The notes beneath the pieces were generated by a model that saw nothing but the letters and a program-made list of their open reading frames with translations, had not been told where the DNA came from and did no database searches. Below, piece after piece: positions 1 through 39,623 of a DNA stretch of 42,463 nucleotides. How positions within the stretch are numbered: the stretch's first letter is position 1; every line of letters begins with the position of its first letter. The stretch spans positions 1-42,463 of the forward strand of contig RBNJ01000089.1 of the NCBI GenBank assembly GCA_003990765.1, in the 5' to 3' direction. The position numbers and the translations under genes were made by a program. The stretch comes from Jimgerdemannia flammicorona. Taxonomy: Eukaryota.

Positions 1-2710
1 TGGGAGGAAGTAGATGTGTAGATATGAGATTGTTTCTGTTGGGTTATAACAACCAAAACATGTCAATACAATGTTTAGTAAATGGTATTGTACATATTAA
101 GTGAATGTTAGTACAAACCTTAGTAATTTGCAAATATTAAAAGAACACCTACCATCGTCCTCCCAACAGTATCCACTTTAGTCAAACTGTCTTTACCTCT
201 GACCACCTTCCTGGTCTCACCCTCTACCATGACTACAAACCACAAGATGTCATACTCAGGCTTATACTACATATGAATGATATACACACTCACCTTGATC
301 TTGTCAAAATTGCATACCATCCACACTATCAGCTCTGCATACTTGCCTTTTTCTATATAGTTTGTAGACACCCCATCATCTTCTACCATTGTCACTTCGA
401 ATCGCTTTTTGATATATTTGGCCATGAGTGGTGGTGGGTATATTTGTATAACCTGCTCATCATCCCTTTGCTCTCCTACATGCTGCATCACCTTGCCAAG
501 TAGGAGGAGTGTGCCTTCAAGCATCAGGAATGAAGAGTGCACATCCTTGAGTAGGGCTGAGAGCTCCACCTCCTGTCTGCCCATATGATGGCAACTGGTC
601 TGAAAGTGGTACCAGTTAGAGCCTATGGACAGATAAACCTTGCATATGGTAGCAGCGGGCTCATAAATGGAGGCAATGAGCATAGTGGAACTGAGCATGA
701 GGTCAAAGGATTAGTTGTACATCACCAGGTCATTTTGGAAATAGTAAAAGAGTGGGCAAAGGATTGGGTGGCCTGTGCAGTGGAACTCGATATAAAGGGA
801 ATATATGTGAGAGATGAGGTAGTAGTGGAAATGGATGGAGGAACAGATGGTCGGAAGGATGGAGGAATACTGTGTATATCATTGCAAATGATTGTAAATA
901 GTGAGAATGTTTGACAAGAGCTTCTAATGCTAAGTATATCATTTAATAGCTCAGTGCAATAATCTTACCATCTATGACTCCATAATAGTGTGATCCAAAT
1001 TCCACAAATGAATGCTAAACCTGGGATTGAAGATTCTGTTCTGTACCCAATGTACGAATAGTTCTGGCTCTGGCTTAGGCCCTGCAAAACCACCCACGTC
1101 ATGGCCATATGTACCAGGGAACATGGACAACCCAGCAGATATACCCATCAAAATATTGAACTTGACTGACTTCCACACTATGAAATTATCTTCACTCTAT
1201 GTCTGTGTGATATATTTGTGAATAAATAAAGTCACAGATCTTGTGATCATGAAGGGTTGCTGGCTCAGCACATATTTATGCATAGTTTCATACAATGCCT
1301 GTACCATCAGTAGGGTCTATAATGGTATGCCAACTACAGCCAAATTAGTCTTGTACAAGGGCAATGGGCAGTATAGGTTCATGGTAGACTTGACTTCATT
1401 GGCAAACGAATATATATCATCAAGCATGGTGAACTCATTGTTATCATTCCACAACCCCTCCAGGCCATACATGAGGAGCTTTATCTTAACATTTTCTTTC
1501 CACCAGTTGAACCCATTCTCGCTCATGAAATCAATGTAGGCACAGCTGGCGGACTTGCCAGTGCTGCTGCTCCACTGCATTACTTTGCCAGGGATGTTAT
1601 CCTCTTCATTCCAGATGAGGCCATGTATATCCTTCAGACTCTGGTAGTACAGATGGGCCTCGAGCAGCCAGGACTTGATGTTGGCGAAGACATGGATACT
1701 AGCATTTTTAAGCTTGACTATCAGGTCTTTGGGGTTTGAGAAGTATTTCTCGTTCTAGATAAAGATGTAGTACTGCTTGGTGTCTTTGTCGACAGTGTAG
1801 CTGGATGAAAGGTAGAGTCTATCGCAGGGAATATTATGCTGGTGGCAGAGATCAGGGAACTCCTTGAGAAGTATTTGTGTATTAGAGGCTTCAGCATAAC
1901 CCATAGAGGAGGCAAGGTAGCTGAATGAGTAGTGGGGAGGGAGGTGATCTGGCATATCCATCAATGAGGTGAAGCCTTCAATGATATCTTAGACAGAAGA
2001 GCTGAAAAAGATATAGTAATCAAGGGGCCCTACCTTGGCATGGTAGTAGTGATAGGGCCCCTACAGCTTAAAGCAACAATTGTAAAATAAGTGAGCATGA
2101 AAACTGCCACACATTACAAAACTAGAGTTAGTGATATATATACTTACAGTATCATTCTCATTGCCTAAATCTACTGTCATCCTTGACATATTGTTGTAAA
2201 AAATACCATGGATCAAGCTTGTGTCCTTTGACAGCATCAGATAGAATAGACAAAACTTGTACAGGGGGTCCAAGGTCTCTGCATCATAATCTATACAATC
2301 CAGATACTCTAGCCTGAACTGACAGCCTTTGAGGTTCAATTCACCAGTGCATTCCCCAAGACCATAGTATATGTCACCTTCAAGCTGTTTCATATAGTGC
2401 CAAACAGCACCTGTGATCAGATCTATGGGATATACATAGTTCAGTAGATCTTCCTGCAGGGGGATATCAGGGTGGCTCTAGACATACTAGATGATGTGTA
2501 GGTCCTTTTTGAAGTTGACAACAATATACAGGATTCTAGTTTTAATGACAAGCTTCTTATCCTCATTGTCAATCTCCAACATGAATATTGGGAGTACCCT
2601 GTCATCGATGAGGGTATAGCTTGGTAGCCATAGTTAGTGAGGTATATTGTGTAAAACACATACAGTGCTATCATTGATAATCTGAACTTGGAGTCTGTTA
2701 CCCTTTTCAT
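1..2710 (-). pseudogene. Glycoside hydrolase family 31 (alpha-glucosidase/xylosidase-like) pseudogene with introns, running off the left edge
   Basis: Fragments in GH31 order on the minus strand: IYYGLGECTGELNLKG (2061-2393), YLASSMGYAE (1755-1964), YIDF..GFNWW..LWNDNNE nucleophile region (1317-1580), GHDVGGFAGPKPEPELFVHWVQ..PRFSIH (972-1178), KVYLSIGSNWYHF (267-698). Many stops and frameshifts. Confidence 0.85.
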
Positions 2711-3181
2711 TTATAAATGTGATAAGATGTCTATCAGAGGAGTCATATGAAAAGTGTCTAGGGTTGTGCTGATGCATGGCTTACACATGTATGAAAAAGG
2801 ATACAACTGCCTAAAATTGTAACTATTGAATTTGTTAAAAATCTGGCATTACTATTTAAAAGGGTGGTTGCCTCATATTTCATCTTGTATATTCATCAGA
2901 ACTGCTTCTATAGAATATTACACTGACATCATTATGTTGGAGTGACCTATCATTACAAGCACTTATCTCATTTGAAATAAATACACCTTTATGTTAATTA
3001 TTATGACTACTAAGTATCTGGATTACAATACTCCATACATATGGTTCTGCAGAATTAAGTGACATAACTAGTATACACAGAAATGGGATTTTTATTTGAG
3101 AATATATTGTCCAAATAATTCTATAGACAATCGCACTCCACATACATATAATCTTTGAAGTACAACTAGCTATTTTTTAAA

Positions 3182-4400
3182 TCACAGATTGTATATATAT
3201 TTTTGAGACTTAGGCTGCTTAATGATTGTGGGGTCTGCTTGTGAGACAGTAGCCGGAGTTTTGGAACCACTTAAAGAAGCCTTAAGCTCTTCGAAATCAG
3301 CATCTTTAGGTTTCCATGCCCATTGCTTGGTAGAGAGGTAGCTAAAGTACCTGAAGACAATTTCTAAGAGAGTCCTTTGATACTGCTTATTATTCTTTAC
3401 ATTTTCCAACACCATCATAATCTGCTTCTTCTGTTGTAATACTTCTCGATTCTTGGAATTATTCCATGGCAGGTGTTACTCAAAGACTATATAGAGCAAG
3501 ATATACCCAAAACTCTCAAGATCATCAAGATAGAAGTGTTCTAATAAACAGATTTGAACCCAAAACCTCCTATAAGGAGAACAGCGAAATTCGGCTTTAT
3601 ACACATACTAAACATATTTATAACCTACCAAGTTTATTCATAGTAGCCACACTTGCAAACATTGGCATTCTGATGAAGACATCCCATGGATGCTGGCTGT
3701 AGTTTGTGAAATTTTTCATATTGGTACAGTAGCATATGGTCATGTTGAAAATGCAGAATTTGAACCCCTCAGATATATAGCTGTTGGATGCCAATATTGG
3801 CTGACTGAGATAGTTTTGTAAATTATGAAAATATAAAGGGTTATAGGAATGGTGACTCATTCAGTTAATGTATTTTGTGCTATCCCAGTGATTACCTAAG
3901 TCTTTATGAACATATCCATAATGATGGAAACTCCGAATATAGTCGATCTAGAAAATAAAAAAAGACATCATATTGCAAAGTAGATGAAAAATTCATATCT
4001 TATTATACAATAAGGTTATATTGTTTTTTAATATATATTTACCAACTTTACTATAATATCTAAGAATTTGTCTTCATTAATCACATTTTCTTTCTTAAGG
4101 TAACTATTCAAATCCATCTTCATTCATTCTATTACAATTATCCCCAAATCACCTTTCTGATATAAATCATAGAATTTGGGTATATGTGGTAGAGGAGTGT
4201 TTCCTATATTATAACAATCAGCATAAATATGTAATTGTTGCTTCTAACAATGAATATTTTCATTTCAGTCCACTAATCTTTAGTATTATTTCAAATACTA
4301 TATATATCCTTCTCTCTTAATACCATCTCTAATGATTCAGGATCTCTGGATTTTTTAATAAATGTCATAAGTGAAGCACGTGTAAGATATGAAAGCAATA
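3182..4400 (-). pseudogene. Protein kinase relic (casein kinase 1-like)
   Basis: Hand translation: ..KKSRDPESLEMVLREKDIY (~4370-4300), PHIPKFYDLYQKGDLGIIVIE*MKMDL (~4190-4110), intron, IDYIRSFHHYGYVHKDL (~3947-3897, HRD-like), STKYIN*MSHHSYNPLYFHNLQ (GTxxYxS..H..DDLES-like), ..QHPW. The DFG region appears to be missing. Confidence 0.45.
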
Positions 4401-38417: not shown

Positions 38418-39568
38418 ATGGGTATGTTTGATGATACCACATAGCTTCATCACAATGCTACCTATCACTGAGAAACTAGTGTCATTGTGGCCTTATGTTC
38501 TTGGAAAATTTCTAGTTTTGTATGGTATATGTTTGCATAAACTAGGTGATCATATTGGATTAATGCTATGTATATCATCAACTAATAATTATTTCATTTA
38601 TAGAAATATTATTTTTCAGGCACATGATTGTAGCATCGAGTTTAGTGCTAGGGCTCAGATACCTCTTGGCCCTATTCCCTATTTCCACTGATGTTATATG
38701 TCAGTTTAATGCAGTGCAAGTGCTCAGCCATACCTGCATGCCACTATCACCTCCTCAGTTCATTGAAATCCACAACATAATCACACATCTCAATGCACAC
38801 TTGGAGACCATGCAGACCTATGACCTGGCCCTGCGTGGGAATTATAGTCAAGAGTTGCTCAAAACTCGGTCGACGATGCATGACCTCGAGTCACTGGCTA
38901 AGCATTCGGACTTGAGCCCTGACCACAGGAGAATTTTTGTAAATTCATTGAATCAACTGTTGAAGGTCACGACTCAAGCAACCTACAGCATAGAAACGCT
39001 GGAGGCCAGGGTGGCCGTCATTTTCTGCCTTCTCATCGAACGCAGCCAGATGATTCAGCGAGATCTGATGCAACTGAAGGGTGATACTGATGCCATGCTC
39101 CTGACAAACCTAGCATTAATCTTCGAGGATGCAATAACTGATGCGAATAATGGTATACAAATTCTCAATTCTCAGGTGGGGATTGTTCTCAAATACTTCA
39201 TAGAGATGGATGTATGCCTTGCCAAAGCCTACGAAGTCATTGTCAAAGAGAACAATGTATAATGTGAACAAAGTGCATCCCTTGCAAAGATCTGGAATGA
39301 CTGGGGCACAAACCACGTGCAAAAGAAACTACTAACCGACAACCTGGACATGCTCCAGACGTTTGAGAAGGCACGCGTAGTGCACATGAATGAGTTGATA
39401 TTTATGTCTAATGCCCTTAGCAAGTTCTGAGAGCAAGTGGGTACTATTCGCCAGACTGTCAAGACTCCTCTTTTGGGGAAGAGTATCACGCATAGCTATG
39501 TTAAACTAGTCAATCAAGCCATTAACGAACTTGAGGCCCAGTATGTGAAATACCCGCAGTTGGATTAA
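38418..39568 (+). pseudogene. Helical hypothetical protein with N-terminal hydrophobic segment, two premature stops
   Basis: ORF 38624-39262 continues in frame after TAA (CEQSASLAKIWNDWGTNHVQKKLL..) to TAA at 39566-39568; probable intron ending TTTCAG at 38619. Confidence 0.6.
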
Positions 39569-39585
39569 GATATCGATATTGTGTA

Positions 39586-39623
39586 TGCATCTTAAAAATA
39601 TAATTATATATTTTTAAGATGCA
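39586..39623. repeat. Perfect AT-rich hairpin (17-bp arms, 4-nt loop)
   Basis: TGCATCTTAAAAATATA-ATTA-TATATTTTTAAGATGCA, 17 bp after the preceding stop codon. Confidence 0.85.

Follow-up and report, generated by a model that had tools for sequence, protein, structure and literature searches.

RESULTS

The DNA analyzed here is a 42,463-nucleotide stretch of the Jimgerdemannia flammicorona genome (contig RBNJ01000089.1; "the window" below). Our main finding is that the portion from 1 to 38.8 kb is probably a silenced, heterochromatin-like compartment of this member of the Endogonales, in which cytosines have been turned into thymines by a process linked to DNA methylation. To this reading, which is drawn from the letters of the DNA, we would give a probability of about 0.55. 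The compartment appears to be made up of a dead Ty3/gypsy element, dead copies of cellular genes, and relics that can no longer be recognized (Table 1). The reading is carried by a depletion of CpG that stops at a sharp edge, by changes that run almost purely from G:C to A:T on both strands, with no frameshift in the two long frames examined, and by a graded dependence on the base that follows the cytosine: loss is near saturation at CpG, about 20% at CpA, 2 to 6% at CpC, and about 0.5% at CpT. The mutated state ends within about 0.1 to 0.8 kb of genes with a normal CpG content. An earlier, sequence-only reading of the same DNA had proposed C>T hypermutation of a whole domain, including non-CpG sites, perhaps in an early-diverging fungus rather than an ascomycete. 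The proteins nearest to those of the glycoside hydrolase (GH31) and flank genes do come from J. flammicorona (Endogonales, Mucoromycota), and the polarized changes described below bear out the hypermutation. Neither of the two outcomes that would have overturned that proposal is seen, since the transition excess reaches beyond CpG and the host is not an ascomycete.

CpG depletion and the right-hand edge

The GC content of the window is 0.37. Counted in 1-kb bins, the observed/expected ratio (o/e) of CpG is 0.00 to 0.37 over 1 to 39 kb and 0.71 to 0.90 from 39 kb to the end of the window. Exact counts give 172 CpGs against 1335 expected (0.13) in positions 1 to 38833 and 119 against 147 (0.81) in positions 38834 to 42463. 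A two-segment Poisson model on 100-bp bins places the single best change point at 38801, with a log-likelihood gain of 93 over one segment, and the ratio steps from 0.13 in 38501 to 38750 to 0.62 in 38751 to 39000. Past the step comes a shoulder of about 0.8 kb, in which o/e is 0.55 to 0.69 up to about 39.6 kb (0.69 over 38834 to 39623), and beyond it the ratio is 0.85. The sequence-only reading had CpGs returning near 38.8 kb and normal past about 40 kb, in agreement with these counts. The monotonic gradient that it described has to be given up, since the ratio by block is 0.14 in the GH31 region, 0.19 in 2.8 to 5.2 kb, 0.02 in 5231 to 8757, 0.08 in the gypsy element, and 0.16 in 18.7 to 38.8 kb, a mosaic followed by the shoulder. 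TpG and CpA show the reciprocal excess (o/e 1.2 to 1.6 in most domain bins), so that the bounded depletion with TpG/CpA excess that methylation-driven CpG decay leaves behind is present here. For TpA, o/e is 0.80 to 1.26 over the domain blocks (at least 0.88 save for 0.80 in the gypsy interior) versus 0.74 in the shoulder and flank.

Two small public contig sets from one organism, X1 and X2, guessed to derive from RNA runs, gave a view of the right end of the window. Their share of window words is 0.06 each, 40 of 135 difference rows were shown, and they cover none of 22.5 to 33.1 kb, a gap that is not evidence of anything. The window has A/T where the read has G/C at 47 positions in X1 and 72 in X2, and the reverse at 16 and 18. 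Likeness to a contig of about 1.2 kb from these runs begins at 38789, that is, at the CpG boundary, so the edge of the domain coincides with a change of sequence identity. In the shoulder (38.8 to 39.5 kb), 13 of the 17 rows shown have window T/A against contig C/G, 3 are the reverse, and 1 is a transversion; by context, the 13 forward rows are 5 CpG, 4 CpA, 1 CpC, and 3 CpT. The contigs that are 85 to 90% alike to 37834 to 38232 and to 40404 to 41030 have a very high word depth (1200 to 9100), which indicates that relatives of both segments are abundant in the X1 and X2 runs. A 38-nucleotide inverted repeat (89% complementary) lies at 39586 to 39623 and ends where the sequence-only reading had ended the domain, the CpG change point being 0.8 kb to its left. 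A 46-nucleotide A-rich run occupies 42292 to 42337, close to the right end of the window.

Direction of the changes in two long frames and a control gene

The two long terminal repeats (LTRs) of the gypsy element cannot polarize each other, and relatives were therefore used as proxies for the ancestor at conserved amino acid positions. With three relatives as tblastn queries, the GH31 pseudogene reads in one frame across 2.6 kb; no frameshift interrupts its 873 codons, and 16 of them are in-frame stops, part of which may fall within intron-like insertions. Its nearest proteins are two partial J. flammicorona proteins (75% and 81% identity) and one unnamed protein. Columns were used where at least two relatives agree, and the C-terminal part covered by a single relative was dropped, which left 432. 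Ninety of these differ: 70 need a single and 11 a double forward step (C>T or G>A), 2 are reverse, 4 are transversions, and 3 are mixed or ambiguous, so that forward changes stand to all others as 81 to 9. With the forward changes set aside, the copy is identical to its agreeing relatives at 423 of 432 columns and is thus a recent duplicate that was hypermutated afterwards. The coding strand carries 50 G>A and 43 C>T changes, and both strands are thus affected, with no clustering into strand runs (42 runs versus 47.2 +/- 4.8; P = 0.17). The claim that genes outside transposable elements, such as GH31, were also hit is therefore sound. A metagenome scan for the DNA of intact GH31 relatives with pattern P0152 returned 74 pattern matches, none of which was confirmed.

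The second frame is the gypsy pol at 13480 to 15690, with 737 codons, 8 stops, and no frameshift. Its relatives are 35 to 50% identical; 75 of the 150 listed had one alignment of more than 600 residues, the first 45 of these 75 were aligned with MAFFT, and columns conserved in at least 60% of the relatives were compared. Differences occur at 82 of 318 conserved columns, namely, 32 single forward transitions, no single reverse transition, 27 transversions, 5 changes that could be forward or a transversion, 4 forward changes of two steps, and 14 other multistep changes. The transversion-type differences are mostly conservative (L>I, F>Y, V>L) and would seem to be lineage differences rather than decay.

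As a control we used the DUF4097 (Toastrack) open reading frame (ORF) in the CpG-normal flank, the closest proteins of which are three J. flammicorona proteins with 57 to 65% identity. This ORF has no stop, and its 46 differing columns (of 225) divide into 18 forward changes, 10 reverse changes, 11 transversions, and 7 mixed cases. Against this control, the ratio of forward to reverse changes differs significantly for both GH31 (Fisher's test, P = 3e-5) and pol (P = 1.7e-4).

Sequence context of the changes

Context was counted only for changes whose dinucleotide lies inside one codon, which avoids unknown synonymous neighbors and confines the counts to nonsynonymous sites. The CpG class comprises CGN arginine codons; the CpA class comprises H>Y, Q>stop, C>Y, and W>TAG; and the CpC class comprises P>S, G>D/E, and W>TGA. 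All 15 CGN arginines of GH31 are changed and none is left (5 are R>Y, that is, CG>TA), 13 are changed and 1 is left in pol, and 2 are changed and 2 left in the control. CpA-class sites are changed at 9/41 in GH31, 5/25 in pol, and 1/13 in the control, and CpC-class sites at 5/79, 1/55, and 0/27, respectively. Sentinels for reverse transitions number 1 in GH31, 0 in pol, and 10 in the control. Pooling GH31 and pol gives 28/29 for CpG, 14/66 for CpA, and 6/134 for CpC, and the excess of CpA over CpC is significant in these coding comparisons (P = 6e-4); the difference of the CpA class from the control, on small counts, is not (P = 0.44). When the 32 forward changes of pol were tallied by hand according to the present neighbor base, the counts were CpG 12, CpA 12, CpC 5, and CpT 3. 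The order CpG > CpA > CpC, with CpT nearly spared, thus emerges from the family alignments together with the LTRs. Plain decay of the DNMT1/DNMT5 type, in which the excess would be confined to CpG and explicable by age alone, was rejected on the CpA and CpC counts and on the 25 of 42 LTR transitions that lie outside CpG.

The LTR pair of the gypsy element

Of the 681 positions aligned between the two LTRs, 47 differ; 42 of these are transitions and 5 are transversions (40 and 3 in the ungapped 659-bp block), and the statement that the LTRs differ almost only by transitions holds. The strings quoted for it, AAGTGCTCACTTA/AAGCACTTGCTTA and GGGGAAATG/GGGGGGATG, are both present in the LTR alignment. 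CpG-derived classes comprise 6 positions with TG versus CA, 5 with CG versus TG/CA, and 0 with CG in both copies. The non-CpG transitions include 16 TG or CA versus TA and 7 GG versus GA; these 25 transitions stand against 5 transversions (P = 0.035 against a 2:1 expectation). On the assumption that all changes were G:C>A:T, the visible change per cytosine copy since insertion is 14/172 for CpA, 8/132 for CpC, and 1/208 for CpT, and CpA differs from CpT with P = 2e-4. From the CpG-class counts, about 17 ancestral CpGs have decayed by about 83% per copy, while transversions amount to 0.2 to 0.4% per site per copy (from small counts of 3 to 5), a ratio that in our judgment exceeds what age by itself would give. 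Among the 40 transition differences, the T/A allele is in the left LTR in 26 cases and in the right LTR in 14 (P = 0.08).

On the minus strand, about 2.8 kb (9443 to 12300) separate the chromodomain-like integrase tail from the 3' LTR, and the element may have an additional gene here. The kilobase from 11000 to 12000 is rich in GC (0.51), and on its plus strand ORFs of 103 to 133 amino acids overlap, none of them with a Pfam match.

The most eroded block and the indices of repeat-induced point mutation

Erosion had been called most extreme at 5 to 8.7 kb, and the counts for 5231 to 8757 agree (Table 1); the CpG-free run reaches from 5231 to 9406, over 4175 bp. Within the block, o/e is 1.01 for CA/TG (1.05 to 1.48 elsewhere), 1.26 for TA (0.74 in the flank), and 1.35 for CT/AG, so the surviving cytosines sit in the spared CpT context. 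No ORF of at least 45 amino acids in the block has a Pfam match, and the block gives no match to gypsy pol. An origin of this AT-rich DNA from an endobacterium or organelle was considered and rejected on these two results and on the lack of a long ORF under translation table 4.

The usual indices for RIP (repeat-induced point mutation) are passed in few places. TpA/ApT is at least 0.89 in 8/43 one-kb bins, (CpA+TpG)/(ApC+GpT) is at most 1.03 in only 1/43, and both pass only in the 8- to 9-kb bin; for the whole block from 5231 to 8757 they are 1.05 and 1.06. The composite index is negative in nearly all bins despite real loss of CpA, and it is insensitive here because CpG decay refills CpA and TpG. 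The failure of the canonical thresholds in most bins weighs against the RIP-like defence suggested by the sequence-only reading. The one-way G:C>A:T transitions expected of canonical RIP are nonetheless what GH31 (81/90 forward only, 2 reverse) and pol (32 forward, 0 reverse) display, and all pieces of the domain that could be compared have relatives elsewhere. Canonical Neurospora RIP was rejected, since the changes strike chiefly at CpG instead of CpA, most bins do not pass the indices, and the RID enzyme is reported only from Pezizomycotina (PMC9963178).

Other contents of the domain

Pfam scans covered the 51 longer ORFs of the window and, outside the gypsy element, stop-to-stop ORFs of at least 45 amino acids, a procedure by which heavily mutated genes may be missed. 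Table 1 lists the features.

TABLE 1 Features of the window, with the evidence for each
Feature	Position	Strand	Basis
Domain of relics (transposons and pseudogenes), depleted in CpG and mutated C>T	1..38800		CpG counts; change point 38801
GH31 glycoside hydrolase pseudogene, hypermutated copy of a Jimgerdemannia gene family	159..2777	-	Pfam GH31 domains; tblastn
Most eroded block, AT-rich and CpG-free, origin unrecognizable	5231..8757		GC 0.25; CpG 1 versus 55 expected
Left LTR (3' LTR of the minus-strand element)	8758..9442	-	LTR alignment
Ty3/gypsy interior: gag with CCHC, dUTPase, protease-reverse transcriptase-RNase H, integrase, chromodomain-like tail, about 2.8 kb of extra sequence	9443..17979	-	Pfam matches; frames
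Right LTR (5' LTR)	17980..18664	-	LTR alignment
24-nt tandem array (proline-rich octapeptide ORF), without CpG	20186..20812	+	CpG-free over 20151-20841
Open BTB/POZ frame, 319 codons	24794..25750	-	Pfam BTB, E = 4.9e-11
Dual-specificity phosphatase fragment, catalytic Arg to Cys (TGC)	30801..31058	+	Pfam DSPc, E = 2e-10; motif HCEQGISCS
ORF with degenerate Walker-A-like motif DPPLSDKT at 32260-32283	32194..32565	+	Motif
SAE2/CtIP C-terminal fragment, non-transposon gene relic	35636..35887	+	Pfam PF08573, 28.7 bits versus cutoff of 19.8
Relic with 85 to 90% alike relatives in two public contig sets	37834..38232		Contig comparison
Boundary and shoulder	38801..39623		CpG o/e step; likeness to ~1.2-kb contig of runs X1/X2 from 38789
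DUF4097 (Toastrack) ORF, CpG-normal flank, control	40235..41275	-	Pfam, E = 3.7e-15

The tandem array lies in a CpG-free stretch (20151 to 20841). At one homologous dinucleotide slot, 20 units read CA 7, TG 7, TA 4, AA 2, and CG 0, a pattern that suggests a former CG that decayed, with a second hit in about 20%. The slot was anchored on a motif; polarizing by a fixed-register consensus was rejected, as 12-nucleotide insertions shift the register. The ORF of the array (20144 to 20862, plus strand) has 24-nucleotide units with a higher-order period of 132 nucleotides and a Cornifin-like Pfam match. Just upstream, 10 CpGs survive in the AT-rich DNA of 19.4 to 20.2 kb, which forms a small islet of CpG within the depleted domain.

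Two losses of catalytic residues had been ascribed to the same kind of change, and the codons allow both. The TGC at the arginine position of the phosphatase motif is one C>T step at a CpG away from CGC. The GAT and GAC codons at the two glycine positions of DPPLSDKT could each have come from a glycine codon by a single G>A step, the former glycines being deduced from the motif; the ORF that carries it has no Pfam match. A Crinkler N-terminal domain is matched weakly at 26929 to 27069 (plus strand; 23.6 bits versus a cutoff of 24.6), and it shares a stretch of 6 kb, on one strand, with the phosphatase fragment and the P-loop-like ORF. The three may be relics of Crinkler-type multidomain genes; the 297-bp repeat pair described below lies close by. 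The BTB/POZ ORF has no relative among the proteins of 175 to 559 residues that were compared. A low-affinity iron permease match just below the Pfam cutoff lies at 36909 to 37055 on the minus strand; together with the SAE2/CtIP fragment, it suggests that the domain collects pieces of several non-transposon genes.

Repeats within the window are limited to the LTR pair, a 297-bp pair (26290 to 26586 and 28414 to 28707; 81% identity), and four copies of an 81-bp inverted-repeat element that are 70 to 90% alike (22645 to 22725, 26748 to 26828, 34043 to 34123, and 38314 to 38394). The four palindromes are spaced by 4103, 7295, and 4271 bp, with the last copy about 0.4 kb inside the CpG boundary, and they could be a miniature inverted-repeat transposable element (MITE)-like element or a terminal structure.

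DISCUSSION

Proposed mechanism and the points that weigh against it

A silenced compartment of this kind could have arisen as follows. Its CpG sites would be kept methylated by a maintenance enzyme of the DNMT1 or DNMT5 type, and an enzyme like DIM-2, reported for Endogonales (PMC9963178), would add methylation at CpG and CpA. Deamination of 5-methylcytosine (5mC) would then yield the C>T changes, spontaneously at CpG and possibly promoted by an enzyme at CpA, as with the Dim2 mutator of Zymoseptoria tritici. The loss of cytosine would be proportional to a methylation preference of CG > CA > CC >> CT. The same process may have acted more heavily on the block at 5.2 to 8.8 kb, an idea that fits its enrichment in TpA and in CpT, the context that is spared. 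The loss may be spontaneous or enzyme-promoted, and duplication may be the trigger.

Several observations weigh against the reading of a methylated compartment. In Z. tritici CpG is reported to be methylated but unmutated while CpA is hit (PMC8016269), and a Dim2-type process would accordingly leave CpG without a high mutation rate, whereas here CpG loss is near saturation. At 37.8 to 38.3 kb, 19 of the 23 rows shown are forward (window T/A, contig C/G), and 16 of these 19 are at a contig CpG and only 2 at CpA, among the 40 of 135 rows shown. The components at CpG and at CpA may therefore be uncoupled, a hint either of two processes or of unequal exposure. The LTRs depart from the coding comparisons in that CpC (6%) and CpA (8%) changed at similar rates. 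The 27 transversion-type pol differences mark distant relatives as imperfect proxies for the ancestor. The process may have acted on the domain as such or repeat by repeat; the gypsy element, GH31, the segment at 37.8 to 38.3 kb, the 297-bp pair, and the palindromes all have relatives elsewhere.

A bolder proposal goes further, and we hold it only tentatively, rating it as somewhat doubtful: Endogonales may carry an active, enzyme-driven cytosine mutator that is independent of RID, probably tied to a DIM-2-like enzyme, and aimed at repeated or heterochromatic DNA, preferring CpG over CpA over CpC and sparing CpT.

Alternative explanations

The relatives just named would suit a RIP-like defence that is triggered by duplication, possibly around meiosis, deaminates repeats with an enzyme other than RID, and leaks over a few hundred bases. 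For such a defence speak the gypsy family, the GH31 paralogues (423/432), the contigs alike to 37.8 to 38.3 and 38.8 to 39.6 kb, and the internal repeats, as do the pure G:C>A:T changes without frameshift and the preference for CpA among non-CpG contexts in coding DNA. The shoulder of 0.8 kb, where forward changes outnumber reverse ones 13 to 3 in the rows shown, looks like leakage, and the left LTR, which adjoins the most eroded block, has more T/A alleles (26 versus 14). Nevertheless, CpG rather than CpA is the main target, most bins fall short of the index thresholds (8/43 and 1/43 pass), and GH31 shows no clustering into strand runs. The flank gene DUF4097, although it has a DNA relative that is about 88% alike, is unmutated. 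RID is reported only from Pezizomycotina (PMC9963178), and a kingdom-wide screen, which treats repeat-directed C>T mutagenesis as an ascomycete trait, is reported to have found RIP-like signatures in ascomycetes only (PMC12543289). On balance, we consider a RIP-like defence unlikely, though a serious contender.

Ordinary decay with age, in which methylated CpGs deaminate spontaneously and the rest is background mutation in old, dead DNA, would account for the loss of CpG with its reciprocal TpG/CpA excess over most of the domain and for the rows shown at 37.8 to 38.3 kb, which are almost all CpG changes. It is very improbable in view of the CpA-class sites, about 20% of which are changed, with 0 to 1 reverse sentinels versus 10 in the control, and of the 81-to-9 forward excess in GH31. 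The 25 non-CpG LTR transitions per 5 transversions, the 15-fold sparing of CpT relative to CpA in the LTRs, and the frames kept without frameshift over 2.6 kb of GH31 and 2.2 kb of pol count against it as well. Editing of single-stranded nucleic acid, whether by an APOBEC/AID-like deaminase or as hypermutation of retroelement cDNA before integration, would likewise give no changes other than G:C>A:T, and the targets do include a retroelement. The LTRs differ from each other, however, and those changes therefore came after integration. The cellular gene copy (GH31) is as strongly affected as the element, both strands are hit equally, and the specificity lies in the 3' neighbor (CpG, CpA), as in methyltransferase-linked processes, whereas single-strand deaminases read the 5' neighbor. 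Such editing is scarcely credible as the source of the domain.

Significance

If the bolder proposal of an RID-independent mutator is correct, RIP-like mutagenic defence is not an invention of the Dikarya, and it would either have been inherited from an ancestor shared by Mucoromycota and Dikarya or have arisen twice; the mutator would also have shaped a genome of 240 Mb with more than 77% repeats. The locus is a Mucoromycota case in which the context spectrum has been measured and polarized, the edge is sharp, and a control gene lies in the same window. It offers a concrete place to ask whether DIM-2-like enzymes outside the Dikarya mutate DNA, and it is relevant to the question of how Jimgerdemannia copes with a largely repetitive genome. 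Early-diverging fungi have been summarized as nearly without 5mC (PMC13297926). A full-text literature search, with subscription journals outside its coverage, found no published account of such hypermutation for Jimgerdemannia or Endogonales.

Comparison with known systems

RID-dependent RIP of Neurospora crassa resembles the present case in its one-way G:C>A:T changes (in duplicated DNA there, in DNA with relatives elsewhere here), its many stops without indels, and a possible leakage into the flank. Its context order, as cited in PMC8016269, begins with CpA, while here CpG is far ahead of CpA. The domain is also unlike Neurospora RIP in the failing indices and in the reported absence of RID outside Pezizomycotina (PMC9963178).

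Among basidiomycetes, some of which are reported to show CpG-biased look-alikes of RIP, the RIP-like hypermutation of Rhizoctonia solani AG8 (PMC4014442) is alike in that C>T changes, led by CpG, occur in repeats and in genes. According to that report, the changes are commoner near repeats, CpG makes up about 40% of C>T, a moderate bias, the single-nucleotide polymorphisms are heterozygous between nuclei, and the mechanism was left undecided between a RIP-like process and 5mC deamination. The present domain is different from this, with saturated CpG loss, a distinct CpA component, a sharp-edged compartment, and a host in the Mucoromycota.

Rhizophagus irregularis belongs to a related lineage. 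Methylation at CG is reported there to be bimodal and to lie on transposons and repeated, non-core gene families, including BTB/POZ, Crinkler, and kinases, and not on core genes (PMC8647823); gene classes of the methylated kind also lie in the domain described here. The paper on Rhizophagus reports methylation and not mutation spectra, and the word "deamination" occurs 0 times in its main text.

The closest described process appears to be the Dim2-dependent mutator of Z. tritici, termed a "mitotic version of RIP" (PMC8016269). Z. tritici is an ascomycete, and for the domain in Jimgerdemannia both the methylation and the enzyme are predicted. Dim2 of Z. tritici is reported to prefer CG and CA, and more than 95% of the mutations in mutation-accumulation lines are C>T in 5mC regions, there methylated transposon regions, with more than 98% of those at CA (PMC8016269). 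The corresponding features here are the near exclusiveness of C>T in transposon- and heterochromatin-like DNA and the preference for CpA as the non-CpG context with avoidance of CpT (14/172 versus 1/208 in the LTRs). The Z. tritici mutator is mitotic and needs no RID, and DIM-2-like homologues are reported from Endogonales, as well as from Glomeromycota, with the species not named in the main text of that report (PMC9963178).

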